Below are positions 1,826 through 46,419 of a DNA stretch of 64,000 bases, piece by piece. The stretch spans positions 29,264,001 to 29,328,000 of the forward strand of contig JANJGN010000026.1 of NCBI GenBank assembly GCA_026770705.1. Reading direction: 5' to 3'. Under the pieces are notes generated by a model, which saw nothing but the letters and a program-made list of their open reading frames with translations, made no database searches and had not been told where the DNA came from. This DNA is from Isurus oxyrinchus (taxonomy: Eukaryota). The position numbers and the translations under genes are program-made. Every line of letters begins with the position of its first letter. The stretch's first letter is position 1.

Positions 1826-2284
1826 ATGAATTTCCCCGTGTTCCTTTCTGATGATACTGGCCTTACTGCCTGGTGAATTCATGTTTAAATAGTCAATGTG
1901 TTATCTAGGCGTTGTATTGAGTTTTGAACCATTCTGGATTTGTGTTGCAGCAACAATTAACGAGGGTCCAGTGTCCCAAGATCCGTCTGAATTAACGATT
2001 CGGGAAAGACAGAACATTATTCTCGACAACCTACGCGCTGCCCACACTCTGTTCCGGTATATTCAGTATTCCGGGAAAGTTCTGTGATATTTACGGAAGA
2101 TATAAGCCTTGGGGATTGAGGGGAGATCTCCAACTTACCAGACAAATTCTCTGCTGATTTGCACAATGGAAACAAACTGTTTCCTCCAAATATCGCAAAG
2201 GTGATTGTTGCCTGGAGCGCCGTGTCTTTCTGTGCTATGAAGCCCACATTGCTGCAGAGAGATAGCGGATCCCGGACAGAAACC
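1826..2284 (+). pseudogene. TCR alpha/delta-type V pseudogene (leader, intron, V exon, RSS)
   Basis: Leader 1826-1872 (MNFPVFL/LMILALLP, 47 nt = 1-nt frameshift) with GT donor; acceptor TTGCAG ends at 1950. V exon reads TINEGPVSQDPSELTIRERQNIIL...LFRYIQYSGK*...DKFSADLHNGNKLF...SAVSFCAMKP; first Cys lost, stops and frameshift. RSS CACATTG (2245-2251)-24 nt-ACAGAAACC (2276-2284). Confidence 0.85.
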
Positions 2285-2307
2285 CTCACTGACAGTTCCA
2301 TTAAGCT

Positions 2308-2324
2308 CCGACCAGAGGGCGCAC
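2308..2324 (+). promoter_or_regulatory. CTCF-binding motif just downstream of V RSS
   Basis: CCGACCAGAGGGCGCAC matches the CTCF core consensus; starts ~24 nt after the nonamer. Confidence 0.65.
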
Positions 2325-3242
2325 TCGGACGTATAACGAGAAACTATAATTCAATTTCCACAATGAGAATCTCAGGAACATTCCTGGAAGATCATAACAA
2401 AACACAACACTCAACAGGAAGAGGCCAAGAACACTTGCAGAATTATATTAGGTGGGTTCAACTCGCACTTATATTATAACCGACCCTCATAGGTTTATTT
2501 ACTTTAACTTGCATAATCATTTTACTGCAGTTTCACTGCCTGACTGTAATATTGAACAGCCCTTTCCCATTTCCCCTTTCAGTTTCCTGTAGCCTTTGGC
2601 CGCGGCCTATTCACAGGCTTTATTTGATCAGAGTGTGTTGCTGGGTCAGAGCGTGTTTATGTGCAATGAACAGATTTCACAAGATAGTGGCTGTGATCTT
2701 TAAAACAAACCCCAAGTACAAATTGAGCTTCAGAGTGTTTCCTTAATGCTGGAACCGTTTCTACCACCATTAACAATCCCGAGTTTGCTGGTGACAATGA
2801 ACAGGTCAGGGTTTTATTCCCATCACTCCCATCTCCAATAATGCTGCCATTCCCCTTTCAGGACACTTTGACTGTAGCCCAGCTCAGGGTGTTTCCATTC
2901 AATGTCAGACAGCTCGCCACAGACGGATCTCATAAAACCAGAGAGGCAGAAGGAAGTGAAGTGAGAACATCCTGAGATATGACAACAAATTATTGAGGGT
3001 GGGCATTAGAACAGGAGTCTTCAAATCTGATTCTGTGATGATCCTCCGAACGGATTGGATTCTGTAGCTTTTTACTCTCGGCCGCTGCTAAAAACAGTTG
3101 TTGATAGTCTGATCCGAGGTGAATGTGGTTTCCTTCCGGTTTGTGTTTGAGCGGCTGACAGAGCCGCTGAACATTGTGGCTGTATCTGCCGCCGATCCTA
3201 GGCAACCCGCAAGACAGGAGCTCCTATTCACAGTCCAAAGGC

Positions 3243-3742
3243 AGTTTTTGTACAGGGGTGACACTGTTTTCCATCATTGTGAGCCTCAGAGCGCAGTATT
3301 ACACGGCAGCGTCAGTCAGCTGCAGACGCGATATGCTCAAACTGGTGAATTTATTCGAGGTCTGGAGCTCTGCAGAGAAACGGCTTTTGGCAAAATCTGC
3401 TTTATCTTCATTATCGCCTTTCTATTTCCACAATATAAACTCAGGCTGTACATCTGGGTGTTTCTGGTGCCAGTATAAAGAGTAGTAGCTCATTGTAGTA
3501 TCATAGGTACAGCTTAAAGTTACCGCTTTTCCTTCTGTCTTAACATCTGAGGATAGCGGCTGAGTGACAGAATCTCCATGAATCACATCTGAAAAACATG
3601 TTCAAACAGAAACAATCAGGCCGAGGATTGTCTAAAATTGACGTTTTATCCATTTGTTTAAAATAGGAGGAAATATTAAATGTGGTCCACATCTACCTGT
3701 CAGAAATGATCCCCACACAACCCAGATTTTGAGTAGCCTCAT
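3243..3742 (-). pseudogene. TCR alpha/delta-type V pseudogene with intact leader and 23-RSS
   Basis: Leader 3742-3697 (MRLLKIWVVWGSFLT, 46 nt, GT donor). V exon 3588-3282: DVIHGDSVTQPLSSDVKTEGKAVTLSCTYDTTMSYYSLYWHQKHPDVQPEFILWK*...RFSAELQTSNKFTSLSISRLQLTDAAV*YCALR, two in-frame stops. RSS CACAATG-23-ACAAAAACT (3281-3243). TGACGTC CRE-like site near 3880. Confidence 0.93.
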
Positions 3743-4706
3743 TATCGCTGACCAGTCTGTAAAAAGGGAATTGGTTATTTGAAGACACCCGTTCTAAACC
3801 CCACCCTCAATAATCTGCTGTGGTGTCTCAGAATGTTCTCATCTCACTTCCGTGTGTCCCCAAAGGTGATGTGAGGACGTCAGCTGGTGAGTTGGCTTCC
3901 AATGAGTTGAAACATCCCTAGCTGGGTTACAGTAAGTGTTCTTATAGGTGAAATGGTTTCGCAGTTAGACACGTGGGACAGGAAACTGAAACTCTTGTTT
4001 ACTTGTTGTAACCGGAAACATGGGGTTGCCAATTGGGGTTGTTTATCCTAGCGTCAATTCTTCAGCTCATCTTCCTGTAGCTTTACCATCAGGGCACAGG
4101 TAACCGTGGCTCCAGTGAGATGTCCCTCCTCGACCAATGAAGTTGTGAACTAACAGTCACTCCGCATTTTTCCAGAGTGGTTTTTAGATCCGTCATAATA
4201 AAAGGATGATATCTGCTGTTACTGAGCACACAACTGAGTAAACACGTATAACAAACTCGTGCTGTAATTTAATCAGCTTTACCGGCACTGTCCTTTTCTG
4301 TGGTTTGCATTTAAATTTCTGTTTCAAGTTGTTCTGCTGAATTCTGAAATTCTTCGTATTGTGATGGTTAATCTAAATATCCATAATCTACAGGTTTAGA
4401 ATTTGCGATGGGAGACAATTTGGGGTGCGGCCCATCGGTGTTATTTTTTTAGCAATTTACCTCTCATTGGTTTAAAGTGGGCGGGAAGAGAGCGCGGAGA
4501 GCGGGTTCAAATTCTCCAGGGTGAGGTGTAGAGTGTGTTTTCGTTAACAAGAACTCAACACCAGCTGGACGGCTTTTACAACTTTCGCTAGGGTCAGGAA
4601 AAAGCAGTGCAGCAGAAAAAGAAATGAACCACAGACATTTTTAGTTTGCCTTGCGCTCCTTTAGCACTCATTTCCATCATCGGTGCAGTTAGAATTATTC
4701 TGATCT

Positions 4707-4722
4707 GTCGCCCTCTGGTGGC
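4707..4722 (-). promoter_or_regulatory. CTCF-binding motif
   Basis: Minus strand GCCACCAGAGGGCGAC, near-perfect CTCF core. Confidence 0.65.
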
Positions 4723-4894
4723 TATTCTGAGAAATGTTCAGGCGCCGTTGGTGAGGTTGCACGAGATTCTGTGTTTAAACAGCGACCTGATGCGACAGTT
4801 CATATTTGTAGGATGTTCAGTTTCAGCGGTCCTGAGTAAATATTCTGAACCGAAACAAAGGTTTTATATCATTCCACTAAAAGCTGTTGCAAGG

Positions 4895-5222
4895 AAGGGG
4901 AGGTGGTGGCATTGTGATATTGTCACCGGACTGGTAATCAAGAGACCCATGGCCGATGGTGGAATTTGAATTAAATAAAAATCTGGAATTAAAAGTCTGA
5001 TAATGATGATCATGAAACAATTTCCGATTGTCGTTAAAAAACACCCTTCTGGTTCATTAATGTCCTTCAGTGAAGGAAATCTGCCGCCCTTACCTGGTCG
5101 GCCAGACTTGTGACTCCAGACCCACAGCAATGTGGTTGATTCTGAACAAGTGCAGTTAGGGATTAGCGGTAAATACTGTCCCAGCCAGCGGCACCCACAC
5201 CCCATGAACGAATAAAAAAAGA
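4895..5222 (+). mobile_element. tRNA-derived SINE (elasmobranch family)
   Basis: tRNA-like head, conserved body (CTGGTTCATTAATGTCCTT...TGTGACTCCAGACCCACAGCAATGTGGTTG) and A-rich tail. The same family recurs at ~41540, ~57165, ~58230 and ~59025. Confidence 0.75.
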
Positions 5223-5458
5223 ATACGGGTAAAAAGTGAAGAAAGGCGATGAGGGGAAACAGGCAGGGAAAATATATAGAAAGACAGTTAAGGTTCCACA
5301 GATGCATTTTTTAAAATTATAAGTGCGAGTTGTTGATATAATTGTACAGTTGGGCCTCTCCTATACTTGTTGGGTGTTGTGTTTCACTGCAGTTTAAATA
5401 AACCACTTGTTAATCTCATGGCGGTGGTTAAATTATTGCCTCTGTTTCAGTCCTGCAG

Positions 5459-5476
5459 GACCGCCCTCTAGTGACC
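5459..5476 (-). promoter_or_regulatory. CTCF-binding motif just downstream of V RSS
   Basis: Minus strand GGTCACTAGAGGGCGGTC, ~21 nt beyond the nonamer of the V at 5498-5713; same relative position as the 2308 site. Confidence 0.6.
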
Positions 5477-5497
5477 CTAACTGAAACTCTGAGTATG

Positions 5498-5713
5498 GGT
5501 TTTTGCCCGGGATCCGCTGCATCTCTGCAGCATTGTGGATTCCATTGCATAGAAATACACGGCGGTGTTGGAGAACAGCGCTTTGATAATTGTTAACTCA
5601 GTAGTTTTTGTAGATTTAATAAACGTCGAAGAGAATCGCTCTATAAAGCCTGGGTCCTGCTTCGCAACCCCTCCAAAGAGATAAAACCTAAACCGTGGAG
5701 GCTGCCCGGGCTA
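5498..5713 (-). pseudogene. 5'-truncated TCR alpha/delta-type V pseudogene
   Basis: Reads PGQPPRFRFYLFGGVAKQDPGFIERFSSTFIKSTKTTELTIIKALFSNTAVYFYAME (second Cys to Tyr). RSS CACAATG-24-GCAAAAACC. The 5' half is replaced by an old LINE fragment. Confidence 0.85.
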
Positions 5714-5729
5714 CTAAATTAGTTCGCCA

Positions 5730-6160
5730 CAAAACCTGCTTGTGATAGTGATTTCCATATTCTACCCTCTCTCTGGGTAAATATGTTTCCCATTGAGTTC
5801 AATATTAGGTCTTTTTGTCTCTCATGATTAAATTCCACAGTTTAGAATTAAGCACAAGTGGAAACATCTCCATGTCTACCCTTTCAAACTCCATCATCAT
5901 TAAAATAACTCTGATTGGTTACCCATCTGTCTTCTCTTTCCTATAGTAAAGAAGACCAGGCTGCGCAGTGTTTTCTTTACCTCTCAAATCTGGCATCATC
6001 ATGGTAGTGCCTTGTTGCATTGTGTCTAAGCCTCTTTATATTCCTGCTGTAAGGAAGACACCAGGATTACTCACAACAGCTCAAGTGTTCTCTAACCAAG
6101 ATCTGCTGAATTTTTAACATGAACCCCGTTACTTTCAAATTAATTTCTCCAAAAATTAAA
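5730..6160 (-). mobile_element. Old CR1-like LINE 3' fragment
   Basis: Degenerate similarity to the CR1 RT C-terminal/3' sequences elsewhere in the window. Confidence 0.5.
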
Positions 6161-6654
6161 CCCATTTTAAAGTGTTTAACTTCTTACAGACAGTGAATGT
6201 CACTCAGTTCACAATAAGATCAAAACTCGCGTTGCTGTTGCTCTGGGAATTCAAGAAACTTTTTGGGTCTCAGAAATCTGCAAAATATTGAACAAAATAA
6301 AGCTTAGAACATTGGCTGAGGCTGGTCTAATGTCACTTCCTGCAGGACACGCGATAACAGGAGCTGCGATCGCTGGATCTGATTGACCTGATGCCATTTC
6401 CGTTACGACAAGTCTGTTTATTACAGAGAACTGAGACATTAACGCCGCATTCTGCTGACCACAGAGAAATGCGGGTAAGTATACACAACTTGATCTCTAA
6501 TTGACCTGAGAGATATTTTGAGCTTTAATGAACTGACATGAAGGTCTACTCAAAGAAAGAAATACAGGTGAAAATATAGATGGAGGTGTTCAGTTATTTC
6601 ACACATTATCACAAATTAGACTGAACTATTCGACTGGGTTGATGTCGGATTTCA

Positions 6655-7365
6655 CAAAATCACAGAATTACAGAGTGTAGAAGAGACTCTTCAGCCCATC
6701 GAGTCTGCACCAACACATGAGAAATACCTGAGCTACCTACCTAATCCCATTTACCAGCACTTGGCCCATAGCCTTGAATGTTATGCCAAGTACTCATCCA
6801 GGTACTCTTTGAAGGATGTGAGGCAACCTGTCTCCATCACCCTCCCAGGCAGTGCATTCCAGGCCGTCACCACCCTCTGGGTAAAAACGTTTTTCCTCAC
6901 ATTCCCCCTAAACGTCCTGCCCCTCACTTTCAACTTATGTCCCCTTGTGACTGACCCTTAAACTAAGGGGACCAGCTGCTCCCTATCCACCCTGTCCATA
7001 CCCCTCATAATCTTGTACACCTCGATCAGGTCGCCCCTCAGTCTTCTCTGCTCAAACAAAAACAACTCAAGTCTAACCAACCTCTCATCATGACTTAAAC
7101 GTTTCATTCCAAGCAAAATCCAGTTGAATCTCCTTTGCATCCCCTCCAGTGCAATCACATCCTTTCCCTAATGTGGCGACCAGAAATGCACACAGTACTC
7201 AAGCTGTGGCCTCACCAAGGTTCTATACAACTGCAACATGACCTCCTACTTTTGCAATCTATGCCTCGATTGATAAAGGCAAGTGTCCCATATGCCTTTT
7301 TCACCGCCCCACTAACATGCCCCTGTGCCTTCAGAGGTTTATGGACACACACGCCAAGGCCCCTT
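6655..7365 (-). mobile_element. CR1-clade LINE 3' fragment
   Basis: ORF remnants ALEGMQRRF...LSHDERL.RLELF..EQRRLRGDLIEVYKIMRGMDRVD, plus the typical 3' tail. Confidence 0.9.
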
Positions 7366-7986
7366 TGTAGTTTGAGATGTTAATTAGATAAACAGAAGGC
7401 TGAAGATAAAGAGTACATTTGCATTTGTTGATTAAACCATTCCAAAGAAGGGAGTAAAATCTTGCACCTAGCTAGTAGACAGCAAGCGATGCATATATTA
7501 CTAATAAAATTGGTGCTATGAAAGGGGTTTTATTGTTGTAACAGATGGAATTCAAAGACCTAGTGATGAAATGGGGGTTAGATTCTCAGGGAAGACTAAG
7601 CCAACAACGGTCTGCAAAGGAACCAAATTGCAAGAGACCTCACTTTCAATTCTTAAGGTTAAATGTTCTTTTCCTGGTATCTGTTTAAAGCCTATGGGTT
7701 ATTGTTGCCTTGGTAAAGATTTACCTGGGAGCGATTAAATTTGGGATTTGTTTAAATGTTATTGTGATAGGAACTTGCAGACATGTGTATGTGTTTAATT
7801 TCTTGTTAAATTACTAAGTGTTTAATCTAGTTTGCATAACAAAACCTCTTGAGGATTGTTGGTTTCATTACTGAATTCAGAGCTGCATCCCTAATACACC
7901 AATTGAAAATATAGGTCATGGCAGTTGTTCAAGCTTCTCTCTGGGATTTATACAACTCAGACTTTACCAACTGTTGTGTCTTAACA
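7366..7986. mobile_element. Possible solo LTR
   Basis: ~620-bp block bounded by TGT...ACA between a CR1 fragment and satellite relics; no TSD seen. Confidence 0.3.
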
Positions 7987-7989
7987 CGA

Positions 7990-8430
7990 GTGATATGTAA
8001 CGTTTGAGTCTGTCTCAGTTATTACTCTACTAGAATATATCTCTTTTCGTATTATATTACAGCCTGTCACATGCTGCACCACATCATTTCCCTGTTCGAT
8101 TGTACAAAGCCCTGTCTCTTTGTACATTCAACTGCACAATATCTCGTGAATTCTGGTAACAAGACCATGCCTGTATTAATATTATATCCTGTCTTTATCA
8201 TTGATATAGTAGATCATGTCTCTATTGATTGTGTACAATATTCTGCCTCCCTTTCAATTACGCTGGGCCATGTTCCATTATTACTGCACTCGATCATTTC
8301 TTTGGTTATATCACAATATGCATTGAGAGAGTTGTCGATACAGTCTCTGTATTATTCCACAAGGCCATTTTTAAGTTATTGTTACACCAGGCTTTTGACA
8401 CAGCCACAGTGAAGCAACGGTGATATAGTT
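7990..8430 (-). repeat. Degenerate outlier of the 54-bp minisatellite
   Basis: Recurrent TGTCTC/ATTACTGCACT-like words matching the reverse of the 29-39 kb array unit. Confidence 0.5.
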
Positions 8431-9425
8431 CTAAGTAAGAATCGTGTGTGGCTTGAAGGGGCAGTTGCAGGTGGTGGTCGCATGCATCTGCTGCCCTTGT
8501 CCTTCTGGGTGGTAAAAATCGTGGGTTTGGAAGGTGCTGTTGATGGAGCGTTGGTGAGTTTCTGCAGTGCTATAGATGGTATACACTGTTGCCATTGTGC
8601 ATTGGTGGTGAATATTTATTGTGGTGGATGGGGTGCATATCAAGCGGGCTGCTTTGTCCTGGATGATATCGAACTTATTGAGTGTTGGTGCAGCTGGACT
8701 CATCCAGGCAAGTGGAGAGTATTCCATCACACTTCTGACTTGTGCCCGCAGATGTTGAAAAGGCTTTAGGGAGTCATGAGGTGAGTTACTCTCCACAGGA
8801 TTCCTACCCTCTGATCTGCTTTTGTAGCCACAGATTCATATGGCTGGCCCAGTTCAGCTCCTGGTCAATGGTGACCCTCCAGGATGTTGACAGTGAGGAT
8901 TCAGTGATGGTGATGCAATTGAATGTCAAGGGAACATGGTTAGACTCCCTTTTGTTGTAGATGGTCATTGCCTGGCACTTGAGTGGCGCAAATGTTACTC
9001 GCCAGCTGCTGATCTAAACCTGAATATTATCCATGCCTTGTTGCATTTGGACATGGACTGCTTCAGTATCTGAAGAGTTCTGAATGGTGCTGAAAGTTGT
9101 GCAATCATTGGCAAACATCCCCACTTCTGTCCTTATGATTGAGGAACGATCATTGATGAAGCAACTGAAGATGGTTCAGCCTGGCCCCAAGACTGAGGTG
9201 AATGAGTTCGAAAAATGACAACCACCTTCCTTTCTGCTAGGTATGACTCCAATAAACGGAGAGTTTTTGCCATGATCCCTATTGACTTCAGTTTTGTTAG
9301 GGCTCCTTGATGCTACATGTGGTCAAATTCTGTCTTGATATCAAGGCCAATCACTCTCACCTTACCTCTGAAGTTCAGATCTTGTGCTCATATTTGAACC
9401 AAGGTTGTAATGAGGTCAGGCATTG
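8431..9425 (-). mobile_element. Non-LTR retrotransposon RT C-terminal fragment (family distinct from the CR1 copies)
   Basis: AQVRSVMEYSPLAWMS...DIIQDKAARLI motif. Probably related to the LINE-tail fragment at ~51745-51940. Confidence 0.75.
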
Positions 9426-10168
9426 AGGTCTATCATGATATGTCATGATGCACCCTGCCTCAGTTAATTCTGTAATCGATGTATCATTACGTCATGTGTC
9501 AGTGTCTCGAATGCTTCTTTCCTGAGCGCGTGTGAGCCCCTTTCTCACTGGGATCCGGGACTAAGGACTGACAGACACTGAGCTGATCCACCGAGGGAAT
9601 TCTCACCCACCTTCACAGGGATATCGCTCAGAACTTTTTGCCGTTCGATCACTTGCCTGGTTCTTTCTCATGAATTTATTTGTATTATTTTACTACCCTG
9701 TTTTTCCCCCTGTCGTCTGTCTGTTTTTTTCTCCACGAAATGCCACATTGTCAGTTTTCCTCTTGCTCGCATTCCCCGATCTCCCCCATTCACTTTATAA
9801 TCGGTGGATTGCCCAATAGTCGTGAGGCCTGGTCTGCAGGCTCTGTGAGCTGATGTCGGTTTGATGAAGGTTGAGTAACAGCTACTTCCTCCTTGGAGCT
9901 GATTTGAATATCGGTTCCTGATTTTAACCGAATAAGCAGTTAATTAGAAGGAGGGTTTAACCGGCTGATTGATGCTGTGATGATCTATCTGTCCTATTGG
10001 ATTCTGAAGTTTGTTTTCTCCTGGGAACATTGGGTGACAGTTTGATCCGAGGTGAATGTGGTTTCCTCTCTGTTTGTGTTTGAGCGGCTAAAAGCCACAT
10101 TGCGGCTTCCTCTGTCAAGGTTCTATACAAACCCCAACAGACTGGAGCTCTCGCCTACAGTTCAAGAC

Positions 10169-11019
10169 AATTTTTGCACAGGGGTGAGATTGATCTTCAT
10201 CACTGTGAGTTTGAGAGCGCAGTAATAGACGGCAGCGTCAGTCAGCTGCAGACTGAAGATGGTTAAACTGGTGAGAGTGTTGATGGTCTGGAGCTTTGCG
10301 GAGAAACGGATTCCAAAACCTTCTCCTTTCTGTCCCTGTGTATCCCAGGATCTTCTCAACTCAACAAACTGGGGCTCCTCTTCCGCTTGTTGCCGGTACC
10401 AGTGCAAAGTATAGTAGTTTTCTGCAGTGCTGTAGGTACAGTTTATAGTCACCCCTTCAGCTTCTGGCTTGTTGACTGAAGACTGGGGCTGAGTAACTGA
10501 ATCTCCATCACTTTGATCTGTAACATGTATTCAGGAGGAAGACAAAACCGAGAATTAAAAGGAGACAGTCAAACAATATTAACACTTTATGCGGGATTGG
10601 GGTGAAAGTACGTACTGGAGAAGGGGTTATGGGGGTCGGGGAATGCAAGTAGCGGGTTGGAAGTGATGGAGTGGGGGTGGTGCGGGGTGGTGGTGGGAAT
10701 ACAAGCCGCAAAATGCGGGCACGGCAAATGCGAGGTGGGAATTGGGTGCGTGGAATACGCTCTTAATCCAAGGCATTGAAGAATATGGCGTGGGGGGAAT
10801 AGAATGCGGTGTGTTGAGTAAAATCACAGCCCGTGGTGATAAGGAGGGAACGGCACAAAAGGAGGAGAAAAACATAACAAAGATAGAGAAAGAGAGAAGA
10901 GCGTGAAAAGATGCAAGTGATAAGATATGAACATTTTAGCTTGAACGCGACATGGCTGGACAATCATTCTTACCGACAGTAAGCGTGGCCAACAAAACCC
11001 AAGCACTCCATACCGGCAT
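10169..11019 (-). CDS. Apparently functional TCR alpha/delta V gene segment (leader + V exon + 23-RSS)
   Basis: Leader 11019-10974 (MPVWSAWVLLATLTV, 46 nt, GTAAG donor); acceptor TTACAG. V exon 10517-10208 is open: DQSDGDSVTQPQSSVNKPEAEGVTINCTYSTAENYYTLHWYRQQAEEEPQFVELRRSWDTQGQKGEGFGIRFSAKLQTINTLTSLTIFSLQLTDAAVYYCALK, with Cys23/Trp41/Cys104. RSS CACAGTG (10207-10201)-23-GCAAAAATT. TTGACGCAA CRE-like site ~117 nt upstream of the ATG. Confidence 0.93.
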
Positions 11020-11289
11020 GTCTGCTGCTGAACCCGAACCTGACTGTTCCTTTAAAGACACAAACGCTGAGTGGACATAAACTCACCAGTTGGTCCTTTG
11101 TCCTTTGTCACCTCCGCGTTTCGTTGCTCCTCCCATTGACGCAAAGTTTAATCTAATTGAGATGAGATTTAAATGAGGGTCAAAGATCAGATGAATATTG
11201 TTGACCCACAGCATAAAAAATTGTGTGCGGAGTTACTCACTCAGTGAGCGCAAGCAATGGTGTGAGGGAAAATGGAGTTTTTGTTTAGG

Positions 11290-11575
11290 ATTAGCAAGCA
11301 AGACATTTTTCATTTATACAGTGTTTTGCACGATCGCCGGACGTCTCAAAGCACTTTACCACCAATGAAGTGTAGAAACCGTTGCAATGCACAAAACGCG
11401 CCAATTAATTTGCTCTTAGCGAACTCGCACAAACAGGAATGTGATAATGACCAGGTCAACTGCTTTTTTTTTTTGCAATGTGAGTGAGGGATAAATATTG
11501 ATCAGAACACCAGGAGGAACTCCACAGCTTTTCGCATAAATATTGCCACCGTACAGGGTCTCGTTTTTCCGTTTC
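11290..11575 (-). mobile_element. Deu-domain-type SINE relic (AmnSINE/SacSINE-like)
   Basis: GACGTCTCAAAGCACTTTAC...GAAGTGTAG...CACAAACAG words; related to the + strand relic at ~39130-39395. Confidence 0.5.
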
Positions 11576-12974
11576 ATCTGAACATTTGAAGCTTGTTTAT
11601 GCCTGTCTCAATATTTGTAGGATTCAGCAAAGTAACACTCCTTTCAATGCAATGCAATGCTCCCTCGGCTCTGCAATGGAGTGTCAGTCGTTAATGTTGT
11701 GCTCAGGCTCTCACATTGATTTTTCTCTATTTTCATACCGGCTAAGACGGCTCATCGTTCCATTGTCATGTACGTTTGGGGTTTGCACTGAAGTACCTGA
11801 GGGGTGGGTTTACTTCGGTAGCGATTGTTTTTGAAACAATGAACGGTTTGTGGTTAAGCGGGAACAACTTCCAGAAGATATTTCCAAAAAGAGACCAGGA
11901 GAAATTTCCCCTTGTTTATCCCCAACTGAAGGTGAATCAAATCAGACCCTCCTCCGTCCTGCCGTCAGCCAGTTCGGTCAGTGAGAGTGAGTGAAATGAA
12001 CTGGAAATCTTCATGTACGTTTAAACCTATCCCTTGTCATTTGGAAATATCACCGTCATGTGACTGTGTTTGTAATTTCCCAGCCGAGGTTGCGAGCTCC
12101 TTCTCAAATATCTGACTGAAACTAACAGGAAACTCCATTTCGCTTTGCTGAAATTAATCACATGGGGAGTGAAATGGTCGTTAATGACACAAGATTCAAG
12201 TTCCAACCCTGGCTCCATTACTGTCCACCTCATTCCGGACATCAATACTGATTTCCAAACGTTAGCTTTACACTGTTTTCATCAAGCTTATTTGCTTGAT
12301 GATTTTCATCGTCTGCAAATAATTCATAAGCTTGGCAGGGGGAAATTATGATGATGAACAGCAGAAAAAGGAAGGGCTGCTACTTTGCTGAATCCCAGGT
12401 AAAATGACACAGACACAGGTTTCAAAAGTTTAATCCATTTACTGATTTAGGATGGTCAACATGCCCCGACGGAACAGCAAGAAAAATCTAACCACGGCGC
12501 GCTCTGGCGGATATCACGAGAACATTAGCACTGTTCGGGGACTGGCCGAAAATTGACAGTAAATTATGTCTAGGGGCAGTTTCTAGCGGCAGTTTATCTG
12601 GAGATAAATTGTGATGATGCTGTGGCTGATTGTAATAAAACGTACAAAGATAAAAACAGTTGACTCACTGTTTCCGCTCTCAGATTTGACCTTTACAGAT
12701 CTGCACATTTAACAGCTCATAACGCGTTTTCACAACAAATGTCTCGGTTCCTTTCAGTGCACGTGGAATTAGATGCATGACATTTATTGCACAGATTATT
12801 GCAGATAATCAGTATGGTTATTCATCCAGACAGTCAATAGTCAAAGGTCAAGAGATTATTTCCCCTGTGACTCCCGCAATTTGGTAACCCTGGTAGAAAG
12901 TGATCTGCCTAGTCATGGGGAAAAAGCACTGAGGATCAGACAGAGTGCCGTCCATCTGTCTGTCAGTAAGCAGC

Positions 12975-13548
12975 TTCATAGAGTCATAGTCATATAGGTC
13001 TACAGCACAGAAAAAGGCCATTCGGCCTATCGAGCCTGCGCCAGTCAAACAAGTATCTAACTATTCTAATCCTATTTTCCAGCACTAGGCCCATGGCTTT
13101 GTATGCCATGGCATCGCAAATGCACATCCAAACATTTCTTAAATGTTATGAGGGTATCTGCGTCTACCACACTTTCAGGCAGTGAGTTCCAGATTCCCAC
13201 CACCCTCCAGCTGAAACAACTCTTCTTCACATCTCCGCTAAACCTCCTGCCCCTTACCTTAAATTTATGCCCCTTGGTTATTGATCCCTCCACTAAGGGG
13301 AAAAGTTCCTTCCTGTCTACCCTATCTATTGCTCTCATAAATTTATACACCTCAATCGTGTCCCCCCCTCAATCTCCTATGCTCCAGGGAAAATAACCTC
13401 GGTCTATCCAATCTCTCCTCATAGCTGAAACACTCCAGCCTAGGCAACATCCTGGTAAATCTCCTCTGCACTCTGTCTAGTGCAATCACATCCTCCCTAT
13501 AATGCAAGTTCCAGAACTGCACACAATACTCGAGCTGTGGCCTCCATA
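12975..13548 (-). mobile_element. CR1-clade LINE 3' fragment
   Basis: RPQLEYCVQFW...YEERLDR...YKFMRAIDRVD...VVGIWNSLP remnants and 3' tail. Confidence 0.9.
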
Positions 13549-14934
13549 CCTGTAAAGCGGGCTGCCACTCATCAAGCTGCATATGTGTATTTTATTGTTT
13601 TTACTAGAGTATACGAATGTGTATAATCAACAGAAAAAAGGCGAATCTGCAAGTGTTGCTTTTCAGGTTTAACATAATGGTAGAACACTCATTTCTGATC
13701 TGAAGGTGGCGAATCTGACTATCATTTCTAAACTCTCTCCTTTGCTGAGAAGCTTATCCACGGTTTGCATTAGGCAGTTCATGCCAATATTTTTCCATGT
13801 CAAATCACGTGCTCCAGGTTAAGCCAATCGAAACTATTTGCTAAAAGGAAATGGGTAGATTTGGCCCTGGGAGATAATCCCAGCCTGTTGGGATAAGAGG
13901 AAGTGGATGTTAATTGATTCTGCAGGTCTCGGTGATGCGACATCATTGACTGTCCTCATTAATTGTCCTCGGATGGCGACTCCAATCTCAGAGAATTTTC
14001 ATAATTTTAATAAAGATAATGGTCTAGAAGGAAGGAGAAAGGATGGAATGATGAGTGTGGGATATGACAAACGTGTTGCATTGGCTCAGGAAGTTTCCTC
14101 CATTCTTGGATGTGGGTGTCACCGGCAAGGCCGACTTAAATTTTCCGTTTTGTTTCGATTAGTTTCATTTCCTTTTCCTGAATCGCCCTTATTCCCTTTT
14201 CTTTGCTTTTGGAACCCTGCTATTCAGGATCCTGCCATTCACGCATCCTGCAGACACATTTTTTGTTTCTTTCCATGCCCTGTTACCACTTGTTTGTTTC
14301 TGAACGATGAACAATTTCCTCATTTAACCTCTTTAATTCTGGCTCTTTAACAATTGACAAATAGGCCAGAAAGTTGTCAGTTGTAGCAGGGGAAACAGAG
14401 ATGGAAAATAAATATAAGGAAAAATGAAGGAAATGCTCAGTAGGTCGGCAAGAGTCTGGAAAGAACAGAAATATAATTAATGTTCTGGGGCAGTGACCTT
14501 CCATCAGAACTAGGTAAAGTGAGAAACGTAATCGCTTTAAGTGAAAAAATAGGATGGGAGAAGAGCAAAAGGGAAGAGCTGTGATGGGGTGCATGAAGAA
14601 GAGGTTAAAGGGGGACATTCCATCCATATTGCAGTAGTGCTTGACTCTGTTTTAAGGCATTAGATAAAACATTTGCTTTTATATCAACAGGAGCTGACAC
14701 ACATCATCATTATATCAGACACAACCTCGATTCGGGTGCACTAGATACTGATTGTGTCATCATCAAACTGCATCCAGTGATATCTTCATTAATGCACTGC
14801 AGACTGTCTCTGTTAAAGTTGCATCAAAGATCGTATTTGTTACACTCAAAGTAAACCATGGCCTTGCTCTTTTTATTGTGTCTGTGTCAACTCTTATTGT
14901 ATTAGACACTGTTTCTGTAATAGTTGAATCTATT

Positions 14935-15005
14935 AACTATCTGTCTATATATCTATCTATCTAATTACTATCTATCCATCTATCTATCTATATCTATCTT
15001 TCTAT
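14935..15005 (+). repeat. (TATC)n microsatellite
   Basis: Imperfect TATC tandem run, preceded by degenerate 54-bp satellite units (~14700-14935). Confidence 0.85.
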
Positions 15006-15068
15006 ATTGTAAGTTATTTATCTGTTGTTCGTTCTCTTTCAATGATAACCAGGAAATAATTTCTGTAG

Positions 15069-15402
15069 GAGTTAGTTCGGGAGATTCAGTCAGGCAATGG
15101 CCAACAGAAGCCCGATGACGGGAAGGGTTCTCCTTGAGTATAAATTGTATCTTTTCAACTCCCAATGTGAAGTTTTTCGCGCACTTTTATCGTGAGAACC
15201 AGAACACGGCTCCCTCTGTCGTAATTCAGGCACATTCCTATGAAAAGAAAAACTTTAACTGTCGCTTTTCGGTCATTCTGGAAACATCGAAGAATATTAC
15301 CACTTTCAACTTGGCAGGGCTGCAGCTCGCGGACAGCGCCGTTTTATACTGCATGGTGAGGCTCATAGTGAGACAGGCCTCGGGGCAGCTTGTACCGTTA
15401 CT
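15069..15402 (+). pseudogene. TCR alpha/delta-type V pseudogene
   Basis: Acceptor CTGTAG ends at 15068. Exon reads GVSSGDSVRQWPTEAR*REGFSLSINCIFSTPNVKFFAHFYRENQNTAPSVVIQAHSYEKKNFNCRFSVILETSKNITTFNLAGLQLADSAVLYCMVR; one stop and Trp41 to Phe. RSS CATAGTG (15364-15370)-23-ACCGTTACT (degenerate). Confidence 0.88.
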
Positions 15403-15443
15403 GTGTTTTGCGAAATCAGTGAAAATAAGATGCATTAAACCCA

Positions 15444-15458
15444 GCCACCAGATGGCGC
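15444..15458 (+). promoter_or_regulatory. CTCF-binding motif downstream of V RSS
   Basis: GCCACCAGATGGCGC, near-perfect core, ~42 nt after the nonamer. Confidence 0.7.
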
Positions 15459-15664
15459 GTCAGGCCCTGGATTCCTACAGCCTGTCACATTGCAAGAAGC
15501 AATGCTGACAGATTCTTTCCTCATTGTACCACAGGAGAAATTGTGTTTGATCTCATAGTTATGCTCATTAATGTGACGTTTCCTTAGAAAGTCAATACTG
15601 AGAAGCTTAGCTCAGTATTCAGCAATAGTTCGGCTCCAGTACATTGGGATTGATTGCCCATTTG

Positions 15665-43679: not shown

Positions 43680-43790
43680 AAGGTGGGGCGTGGATCCAGT
43701 TGCCGCCTCCACCAGAGAAGCAACAGGCGGCGCCTGGAAACCCGCCCCCTTCTGCCGGGAATTTAAATGCTGCTCACTGGGACCGGAATC
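43680..43790 (+). promoter_or_regulatory. IgH V promoter region
   Basis: GC boxes (GGGGCGTGG, CCCGCCCC) and ATTTAAAT TATA-like element ~85 nt before the leader; no ATGCAAAT octamer. Confidence 0.5.
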
Positions 43791-43846: not shown

Positions 43847-44377
43847 ATGGCCAGAAGGAAGAGGTCGGCGATTTTTCTCAGTTTGTTGCTGACTTTTCTT
43901 ATCCCGTGAGTAGTTTTTATTGCCCAAGTCTCTCACTGTTACTGTCTCAGTGCTAATCTTTCTCTCTGGAATTTTACAGAATCAGGAATCATTTCATCAG
44001 GATTAACCTGCGGGTTTTTGATATATTTTTACAGGTGTCCAGTCGGATGTTGTGTTCAGTCAGCCAGAGGCACAGACCGGGCGTTCCGGAGGCTCCCTGA
44101 GACTGACCTCTAAATCCAGCGGCTTCGATCTTGGCAGCTACTGGATGTTCTGGATCCGACAGGTTCCCGGACAGGGGCTGGAGTGGCTCCTTGATTACAA
44201 AACTTCATCCAGCAGCACTACGCCCCAGGAATTAAGAATTGATTTACTGCGTCCAAAGACACTTCAAGAAACATCTTCTCCTTGGACGTGACGAACCTGA
44301 AGACTGAAGACACCGCCATCTATTACTGTGCAAGATAAAACAGCGAGAGGAATCAGGGCTGGACTCGAACAAGAACA
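43847..44377 (+). pseudogene. IGHV: IgM VH pseudogene with leader and damaged 23-RSS
   Basis: Leader RSAIFLSLLLTFL (out of phase by 1 nt, donor at 43906). Exon from 44035: [51 protein letters not shown]...(frameshift)[38 protein letters not shown]; Cys23 to Ser. RSS AACAGCG (44339-44345)-23-ACAAGAACA. Confidence 0.95.
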
Positions 44378-44747
44378 GATCGGGAGGGACTCAACAACTT
44401 CCATCGTAACCTGACAGTCAGTACTTGTTTTAAATGTAATATTAACTTTAATGATCAGAACCAGAAAACAAGCCGCTTCTGACAAAAGTAAAACAGTAAA
44501 TTTAATAGTAAAACCTAACAAACCAACCGATATAATGGGCTGAGTTTTGGGCTGTGTTTATATTTAATGTAAATAGTTTCCTCAGTTACAGACCTGGATA
44601 TAATGTTAATTTTAATATGCCTAACACTTGGAGGGGATCTCTGTTCATTGAGTTTTGTAAGTTGTTTTTTCAATACTAAACTGCATCAGAAATAAACGTC
44701 TATTTGAAGTGAATATTGAGAGGCAGCACTGAACAGAGAGTGGGTGT

Positions 44748-44823
44748 AGTTTTTGTGCGGGTGTATTTCATTGTGCTCAGTGGGTGGCTGGATGTCACAG
44801 CTGTTACTGTCAATACAAAAACC
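44748..44823 (+). other. Single DH segment flanked by 12/12 RSS (probable joined D1-D2)
   Basis: AGTTTTTGT-12-CATTGTG | CTCAGTGGGTGGCTGGATGT (44776-44795) | CACAGCT-12-ACAAAAACC. Confidence 0.9.
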
Positions 44824-45153
44824 TCTCAGCATTAAATGAGTCTGCCTGGGTCAGTGCTGGCTTTTACAATCATGCTATATTTACAGTGAAGTATTTTTTT
44901 AATGTCCAGCACTGCCCACAAAACATGGTTTAAGATGAAAAAGCCGTGAAAAGTATTCATTCATCAGTTGGTGATTTCAGTAACATGTTCTTGTATTACT
45001 CTGTGAAATGTAAAACATGAGGGTCATTGATGAATAGCTAAAAATATCTACAACGCAATTATAATTTCGTGAAGATTCAGCGTGACTTTACTTTGCCTCT
45101 GACTTATGAATATTTAAAATAATGGTGGATCTCTGTCTTTTTCGTGCAGGGAC

Positions 45154-45240
45154 AGTTATTGTATGGCACAGCCCAGGGACTGTAACACTGTGACGCAAAG
45201 GACTACTGGGGACAAGGGACGGTGGTGACGGTGACTGCAG
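45154..45240 (+). CDS. IGHJ: JH segment with intact 23-RSS
   Basis: AGTTATTGT-23-CACTGTG (45186-45192); coding 45193-45240 AKDYWGQGTVVTVTA; GTAAG donor at 45241. Confidence 0.95.
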
Positions 45241-46419
45241 GTAAGAACCATGCACTTGTTTGGTAATTGTTTTAGTTGAGTCTTTGTTTTATATTTTTAT
45301 CTATTTTTATAAGTCATTCGTTCACTGAAATGTGGATTTGGTGGATTCTGTATTGAAATTTTTAAATAATGTTTCAAATGATTCTGCTGAAAAAGGTTTT
45401 TATAATTTGGCTGTTTCTCGACAAAAAAGTGCTGCTGAGGGATTCAGTCCCTGGTTGTTGTGATTTGGTGTTTATCTGCTGAAGATACTGTGCAGCAGGG
45501 CTACCTGAAATACCCAACGTTTGTTAAAACAGTTTGACGTTTCTGCGATGTTTAATCTCGGTGATATCTAATGGCTGTGGGTTTTACCGTCTACTGAACA
45601 ACGGTTTAAATATGTTTGAAATCAAACCCAATGTTAACAAAATATGCTTAAATTCCAATGTTAATTTAATGAACATGCTCCTCCTCACAATGTTGGTGCC
45701 ATTATTCCATATGTCTGTTTGGTTTAATTATTCATTCATTTGGTGACGAGCGAGTTGTCTGGATTCGATGTTGAGATTCTCTTGCAATGTTCCATTGGAT
45801 TCTGTTTCTGTTGGAAGTGCTTGTTCAATTGAGCTGCTTCTCCATAAAACGGGGTTCAGCCCCTCAGTGATATGATTTGGTGTTTTTCTGCTGAGGAGAT
45901 TGTGTGTCTGGGTGACTTTGAACAAGTAGAATTTATGAAACGGTTTGGCTGTTCTGCAGTGTTTCTGCTTTGTTTAACCTCGGTGACATTGAGCGGTTAC
46001 ACGTTTTGTGATTGAATGAAACAGCCTTCGCGTTTGTATCTGCTTGAAGTGCCATTGTCGGCAGAAAACAGAGGCTTCAGAAAAGGGGAAAAAACGTTTA
46101 AAGATGTGTTAGAACATCTTGTTTTTATTTTAAGTGATAATTGCAGATTAATCTAAACCATGGATCATTCAGAACATCATTCGTTACTGCAATCAGAAAC
46201 TACATAATTTACAAGTTTTCAAATTGTAGAGTAAAATTAATATAATTCCAGCAATTATAATGTGGTAAAATTTCTCCATATTGACGGAACAGCTTTTGTA
46301 TTAACATAATTGATCATCAATCTTTTTTTCTCAATTCTGCTGTGCACTGCGCACAATTAACATGATCGGAAAAGTTTTTAGGCTGGAAACAGTCACTCAC
46401 CATCAATTACTCGCTCAAA

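Follow-up and report, generated by a model that had tools for sequence, protein, structure and literature searches.

Do the recombination signal sequences (RSSs) of shark T cell receptor (TCR) variable (V) segments have binding sites for CTCF behind them, and if so, what would such sites do in a locus in which V segments lie in both orientations? The question is raised by a 64,000-nucleotide stretch of Isurus oxyrinchus DNA (contig JANJGN010000026.1, here C26, positions 29,264,001-29,328,000; hereafter the window), which is part of the shark complex of immunoglobulin heavy chain (IgH) and TCRα/δ genes. It contains five TCR-type V exons, V1 (+), V2 (-), V3 (-), V4 (-) and V5 (+), and, at 44-45 kb, a broken IgH minicluster of V, diversity (D) and joining (J) segments. 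A first-pass annotation had noted CTCF motifs behind V1, V3 and V5 and likened them to sites of the mouse Igh locus. We find that these RSS-adjacent motifs are real and under selection. In our reading, to which we assign a probability of about 0.55, the three motifs are copies of two CTCF motifs inherited within two TCRα/δ V lineages (lineage A with V1 and V3, lineage B with V5) and kept by purifying selection at a fixed distance behind the RSS, and they probably bind CTCF as pauses or anchors of loop extrusion in the multi-megabase complex. The layout behind this reading was observed directly: fixed spacing, co-orientation, restriction to two lineages, constraint that tracks the information content of the CTCF motif, and five reverse motifs between the δ constant (Cδ) and the Jα segments.

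All three motifs are present where the first-pass annotation had placed them, the 19-bp motif starting 21, 20 and 39 bp after the nonamer of V1, V3 and V5, respectively, and, as it had stated, each follows its V in orientation and flips with it. From the consensus CCASYAGRKGGCRS printed in PMC6746451 the V1 and V3 sites differ by one mismatch each and the V5 site by none; the V1 site is weak, a near-invariant C being replaced by G. As V1 and V3 share one inherited 3′ cassette, the window holds two independent cases, not three. No such site lies behind V2, behind V4, the only intact TCR V, or behind the IgH V of the window.

For the locus at large, 120 stretches of 10 kb around search hits were sampled together with the window, giving 415 V-like exons in 1.264 Mb of the ~17-Mb region, and the test set comprised the 257 Vs whose RSS could be recognised and for which 150 bp of flank was available. 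The enrichment in position and orientation over shuffled controls that is to be expected of such an architecture is found in this sample: at a cut-off of at least 10 bits, a co-oriented motif lies within 150 bp behind the RSS of 57/257 Vs and an anti-oriented one behind 5/257, while dinucleotide shuffles gave a mean of 3.2 co-oriented motifs (maximum 9) and column-permuted matrices 2.4 (maximum 24). The motif starts 20-22 bp behind the nonamer in 51 of the 57 cases, and the printed consensus with at most one mismatch occurs 38 times co-oriented and never anti-oriented. The sample is biased toward the V families of the window, and one search query itself contained the motif; among lineage-A Vs not matched by that query the site was still present in 43/63. 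Genome-wide, the exact pattern of nonamer, 18-46 bp and core gave 51 matches, compared with one for the reversed control, 47 of them on C26 and its companion contigs. On the contigs carrying IgL, TCRβ/γ and IgW/IgNAR this exact pattern had no match, degenerate sites being possible there.

Several candidates were set aside. The four off-locus matches (contigs C3, C4 and C30) all stem from a single unrelated interspersed repeat and lack both a heptamer beside the nonamer and a convincing V match; that the repeat combines a perfect RSS nonamer with a CTCF-like core 19 bp later we take as coincidence. A match in family f4 that overlaps its own RSS, and one of 11.9 bits at offset 0 of an intact V on contig C242 (described below), were not counted as sites. 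In metagenome contigs the heptamer-nonamer-core pattern occurred at 27 loci, none with a V exon upstream, 23 of which are one bacterial-looking, terminator-like hairpin.

The V segments concerned are of TCRα/δ type: the V domain is nearest to TCRα V, the RSS is of the 23 class, and relatives lie on the contig that carries Dδ-Jδ-Cδ and Jα. An intact relative from family f0 has TCRα V chains as its best PDB matches, and a relative in Scyliorhinus torazame bears the name TCR alpha chain-like. Between 23 and 40.3 Mb of C26, relatives of the window Vs are interspersed with at least 33 located IgH clusters. Elasmobranch V exons of TCRα/δ type between IgH miniclusters and linked to TCRαδ have been described before (PMC12227049), an arrangement that the window resembles; in the main text of that paper the words CTCF and cohesin do not occur.

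The site segregates with V lineage: on a quick tree with 124 rows its distribution takes 11 changes, compared with 26.9 after shuffling. Lineage A retains it at +20-22 in 61/85 members as part of a 3′ cassette made up of a CACACTG heptamer, a mostly 24-bp spacer and the CTCF site. In lineage B a different sequence carries the site at +39 in 15/15 members, none of which is intact and most of which have decayed RSSs. The sequences of the two lineages are unlike, yet both fit CTCF, and A and B occupy separate parts of the quick protein tree, which was built from 124 rows and 100 columns and leaves many forks open. RSS-proximal sites were absent from families f1 (0/40), f3 (0/26) and f5 (0/20), from the NAR-TCR Vs (0/15) and from the IgH Vs (0/13, one IgH V family sampled). 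The 24-bp spacer, seen in the window behind V1 and V3, occurs in 35/48 good lineage-A RSSs and in 0/129 other Vs; it is also found in intact lineage-A Vs and in a horn shark gene model, and the RSSs of NAR-TCR Vs have a 22-bp spacer. In families f6 and f21 on C26, lineage-B Vs usually have a lineage-A V ~1.2 kb behind them, resulting in two tandem co-oriented CTCF motifs; such pairs are often found upstream of an IgH V, at 40-49 kb and in head-to-head arrangement with it.

Selection on the motif was assessed by counting parsimony changes on trees of exon-end/flank alignments, eight high-information motif columns being compared with base- and CpG-matched flank columns. In lineage A these columns underwent 4.26 changes each, compared with 8.95-10.0 in matched flanks (0 of 20,000 draws), and in lineage B 0.12 compared with 1.15-1.44 (p<=0.00075); in lineage A column conservation also tracks information content (Spearman 0.69, p=0.001). 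In keeping with the earlier remark that the motifs are better preserved than the dead exons, CTCF-critical columns accumulate at most half the changes of matched flanks, in an all-pseudogene family too. These rates also bear on a neutral account, in which two motifs arose by chance and were then copied along by segmental duplication and by gene conversion at the 3′ ends of Vs. Such an account would agree with there being just two independent origins, with the homology of the flanks and with the decay of some copies, V1 included. Against it, matched flanks show 2-fold (A) to 10-fold (B) more changes than the high-information columns, and a +21 site is inferred in a holocephalan (see below); the account is already disfavoured and, in our estimate, improbable.

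Between nonamer and core, lineage-A sequences resemble the upstream motif bound by CTCF zinc fingers (ZF) 9-11, a CTGCAGTTCC-like 10-mer taken from PMC12885311, where this feature is tied to enhancer blocking. At a 6-bp gap 31/77 members reach at least 7/10, 0/265 other offsets match as well, and in 58 unrelated strong CTCF sites the upstream motif peaks at the same gap (7 compared with 0 at a control gap). Lineage B shows no such resemblance (0/15 at gap 5-6), and with its one origin the lineage-A signal is only suggestive. Contigs from four runs of another organism cover the V1-V3 stretch at ~96% identity; among the differences listed, only the low-information position 2 of the V3 motif differs, and since 368 rows lie outside this list the comparison carries little weight.

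The D, J and C segments lie on C242, of which 760 of 814 kb were read. A 12-RSS pattern exposed the J cluster; a search with Pfam DUF1968 found no TCR Cα. All segments are on the plus strand: D (590 kb), Jδ (595-608 kb), a C exon (617 kb) and Jα-like segments (665-710 kb), labelled δ and α by us from their order and RSS type. Five CTCF motifs of at least 14 bits fall within the 42 kb that separate Cδ from Jα, all on the minus strand and facing the Vs (637,008-659,305; best 24.3 bits at 656,332), an apparent shark equivalent of the TEA/INT or Cer platform. Relative to D/J, 74/124 Vs on this contig and 30/42 intact ones are inverted. Between 370,000 and 550,000, cassettes of NAR-TCR V and supporting V are arrayed in tandem, almost all of them in the opposite orientation to Dδ-Jδ-Cδ; provided that the assembly is correct, they would have to be joined to D/J by inversion. 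IgH-like V segments lie directly upstream of Dδ (582,535-585,000), presumably in keeping with reports of Ig-like Vs in the TCRδ loci of sharks.

This geometry fits poorly with the first-pass annotation's model, in which the sites are true counterparts of the CTCF-binding elements (CBEs) of proximal mouse VH segments and impede linear RAG scanning from the D/J centre. The resemblance is considerable: shark sites lie on the same side of the V, in the same orientation to it, at a similar distance and with clan-like restriction, and even in mouse inversion of the VH81X site lowers usage only modestly. But the 92 sites on C26 are on both strands (47+/45-), the inverted Vs of C242 could not be joined by linear scanning, which cannot make inversional joins (PMC10772921), and of the sites on C242 none lies in the D-proximal 216 kb and 6/7 point away from D/J. 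Moreover, lineage-A Vs keep the site equally well when broken (45/63) and intact (16/22), whereas mouse non-functional VHs are typically without one (PMC6746451). We regard the scanning analogy, in the form first proposed, as unlikely.

Under the reading we prefer, the V-side sites would be occupied by CTCF in thymocytes, cohesin extrusion anchored at the reverse sites before Jα would pause at them, and pausing would lengthen the contact of the adjacent RSS with the recombination centre. The lineage-A RSS with its unusual 24-bp spacer may be weak, and the neighbouring site could rescue it, as RSS-adjacent CTCF sites do for weak RSSs in mouse (PMC11153149). Because most Vs near D/J are inverted and linear scanning could not join them, short-range diffusional capture as at Igκ and Tcrb fits better. 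These loci share with the shark complex a mixed V orientation, a CBE platform before J (Cer/Sis in Igκ) and V-side CBEs as dynamic impediments (PMC11153149, PMC10772921). The shark differs from Igκ in that 0/103 Vκ segments have an RSS-proximal CBE and strong RSSs are relied on there, compared with a site plus a non-canonical 24-bp spacer in lineage A (PMC11153149, PMC10772921). The copies in the window, behind dead Vs, would now serve only as architecture.

Retention on dead Vs, unlike in mouse, leaves room for another role, namely that of boundary or insulator elements for the interspersed IgH miniclusters, with the position behind the RSS a historical accident independent of the V. Along with the equal retention behind broken and intact Vs, the 15/15 retention in an all-pseudogene family and the lineage-A resemblance to a motif tied to enhancer blocking would be expected of such elements. 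In addition, 30/41 sites found up to 80 kb upstream of an IgH V face away from it, and 8/15 lineage-B Vs lie 40-49 kb upstream of one, also facing away. This pattern, however, is largely co-duplication of one block, so that the IgH-adjacent counts are not independent, and the fixed RSS spacing is kept in sequence tails derived from chimaera and horn shark, with similar sites behind teleost TCR Vs. Teleost IgH is a translocon and not a set of miniclusters. A boundary role appears doubtful, if less so than linear scanning.

The tails come from gene models that read through the RSS and so keep the DNA behind it as peptide, in which the motif was scored by summing over synonymous codons. From 152 proteins we obtained 60 tails with an RSS, 50 of them non-redundant; the sites are inferences at the level of peptides and not of the species' DNA. 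A co-oriented motif of at least 10 bits is implied by 9/50 tails and an anti-oriented one by a single tail, compared with 0.57 for permuted matrices (maximum 3). Tails of lineage-A type have it at exactly +21 in Callorhinchus milii (12.3 bits), in Heterodontus francisci (10.1 bits, with a 24-bp spacer) and in one further record (13.7 bits). Six teleost TCR V tails imply sites at +15 to +47, namely from Danionella, Xiphophorus, Platichthys (twice), Alosa and Scortum, the last with ambiguous strand. A lizard tail (P0028, 8.4 bits) was set aside, as its motif-like peptide runs into the next V leader at an offset not fixed in advance. Chimaeras and sharks have been separated for roughly 400 million years, and the lineage-A site is likely at least as old as their split. 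The signs in chimaera and teleosts together make an origin before the split of bony and cartilaginous fishes plausible, as the first-pass annotation had proposed; descent of shark and teleost sites from a common ancestral site is conceivable, at slightly less than even odds. Continuity with mammalian VH sites through VH itself is not supported, since the shark IgH Vs sampled have no site (0/13), and direct homology with the mammalian sites is unlikely on present evidence.

How far, then, do the shark sites match those known from other antigen receptor loci? RSS-associated CTCF sites belong to VH clans 2 and 3 of mouse and human IGH (PMC6746451, PMC4914699, PMC6439775, PMC11153149), where they lie 17-19 bp behind the RSS in mouse and 19 or 48 bp behind it in human (PMC6746451). 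In common with these, shark sites have a fixed distance downstream of the nonamer in two distance classes, co-orientation with V transcription, restriction by V lineage and a motif more conserved than its flanks. They differ in lying behind TCRα/δ Vs and not IgH Vs, in offsets of 20-22 and 39 compared with 17-19 and 48 (the reference points differ by 1-2 bp), in neither facing one centre nor being D-proximal, in being kept on pseudogenes, and in a gap that is itself conserved with resemblance to the upstream motif. Lacking three defining traits, position on VH, orientation toward the centre, and proximal location on functional segments, they are a variant of the RSS-associated CBE rather than a member of that class.

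In mouse Tcra/Tcrd, V-region CTCF sites occur in both orientations and a V-facing TEA site lies upstream of Jα (PMC5859386), similar to the V-side sites on both strands and the V-facing sites before Jα in the shark. The mouse sites listed in that paper are upstream of promoters or intergenic, not behind RSSs, Tcrb having two near an RSS; here the lineage-A and lineage-B sites, behind RSSs, differ. In contrast, the co-oriented sites that precede the V exons of two shark families on C26, f5 and f16, resemble the promoter-side sites of mouse Tcra; they are strong motifs 350-440 bp (some ~700 bp) upstream, found in 21 listed f5 rows and in 5/5 f16 Vs. At the borders of topologically associating domains in skate, CTCF sites show an orientation code (PMC10115646).

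Several observations weigh against the reading we prefer. The bit scores rest on a CTCF matrix that is not a database copy. On C242, RSS-adjacent sites are found behind only 7 Vs, all broken, and 0/42 intact Vs have one; on C26 only 16/92 sites lie behind intact Vs, and the two are separate contigs in this assembly with no join seen. In lineage B the correlation of conservation with information content is not significant (p=0.11, n=8), and three tails of lineage-A type (P0001, P0020, P0045) show no motif, by splicing or loss. Finally, the exons of the two main lineage-A families are 0.48-0.55 alike, about the alignment baseline of 0.50, but the last 40 nt of the exon, the RSS, the gap, the motif and the next 40 bp are 0.70-0.88 alike. 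As this 3′ cassette is common to distant V families, part of its conservation may be gene conversion. Together with one f0 subfamily that has the same exon, a different RSS and no site, this suggests that V families have swapped the cassette among themselves, or else that strong constraint acts on its parts jointly.

The features of the window are compiled in the table.

Table. V segments, RSSs and CTCF motifs of the window (positions within the 64,000-nucleotide stretch).
Feature	Position	Strand	Description
V1	1941..2244	+	broken TCRα/δ-type V exon, lineage A, family f0
V1 RSS	2245..2284	+	CACATTG, 24-bp spacer, ACAGAAACC
V1 upstream-motif resemblance	2290..2299	+	7/10 match to CTCF upstream (ZF9-11) motif, 6 bp before core
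V1 CTCF motif	2306..2324	+	21 bp after nonamer, 9.9 bits, weakened, G at near-invariant C
V2	3243..3598	-	broken TCR V, family f1, 23-RSS, no CTCF motif behind
Intergenic CTCF motif	4706..4724	-	strongest of the window, 22.6 bits, between V3 and V2, not RSS-proximal
V3 CTCF motif	5459..5477	-	20 bp after nonamer, 17.9 bits
V3 RSS	5498..5537	-	CACAATG, 24-bp spacer, GCAAAAACC
V3	5538..5788	-	broken TCRα/δ-type V exon, lineage A, family f9
V4	10169..10530	-	sole open TCR V exon of the window, 23-RSS, no CTCF motif behind
V5	15056..15363	+	broken TCR V exon, lineage B, family f6 (0/15 members intact)
V5 RSS	15364..15402	+	decayed, CATAGTG, 23-bp spacer, ACCGTTACT
V5 CTCF motif	15442..15460	+	39 bp after nonamer, 19.5 bits
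IgH V-D-J minicluster	44022..45241	+	broken, V RSS without CTCF motif behind

The strongest motif lies 1.1 kb upstream of V2, and a second intergenic motif (12495-12513, minus strand, 10.4 bits) lies 2 kb upstream of V4, each co-oriented with the V it precedes. An anti-oriented GC-rich motif of 12.6-14.7 bits, which may be a CTCF site or a promoter GC box, was found ~280 bp upstream of the V exon in 11/13 IgH Vs (43740-43758 in the window and 10 others). No RNA record is listed for the window, which says nothing on expression.

In the papers cited here, RSS-adjacent CTCF sites are described only for mammalian IgH, in mouse and human, with site prevalence given also for chimpanzee and rabbit. 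Among titles and opening lines of abstracts, a scope that leaves subscription papers and supplements aside, we found no description of such sites on shark TCRα/δ Vs. On a broader and more tentative view, which we hold to be possible but short of probable, a CTCF site behind the V RSS would be ancestral in the TCRα/δ locus of jawed vertebrates: held at +21 in one lineage from chimaera to shark, variable in spacing in teleosts, and no longer present in mammalian TCRα after a loss, though VH clans 2 and 3 reused or inherited it. Control of V choice by extrusion would then date back as far as V(D)J recombination itself, and in sharks the RSS-CTCF cassette would be a swappable module propping up RSSs with a 24-bp spacer.

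Selected RSS-adjacent sites on shark TCRα/δ Vs, V-facing sites before Jα and promoter-side sites together suggest that the folding of antigen receptor loci by CTCF and cohesin is old, and, judged from their sequence, the sites likely help to fold a very large shark immune locus. With candidate sites, predicted partners and V lineages for repertoire counts now specified, the standing question of how a ~17-Mb mixture of TCR Vs in two orientations and IgH miniclusters reaches one D/J centre becomes testable.

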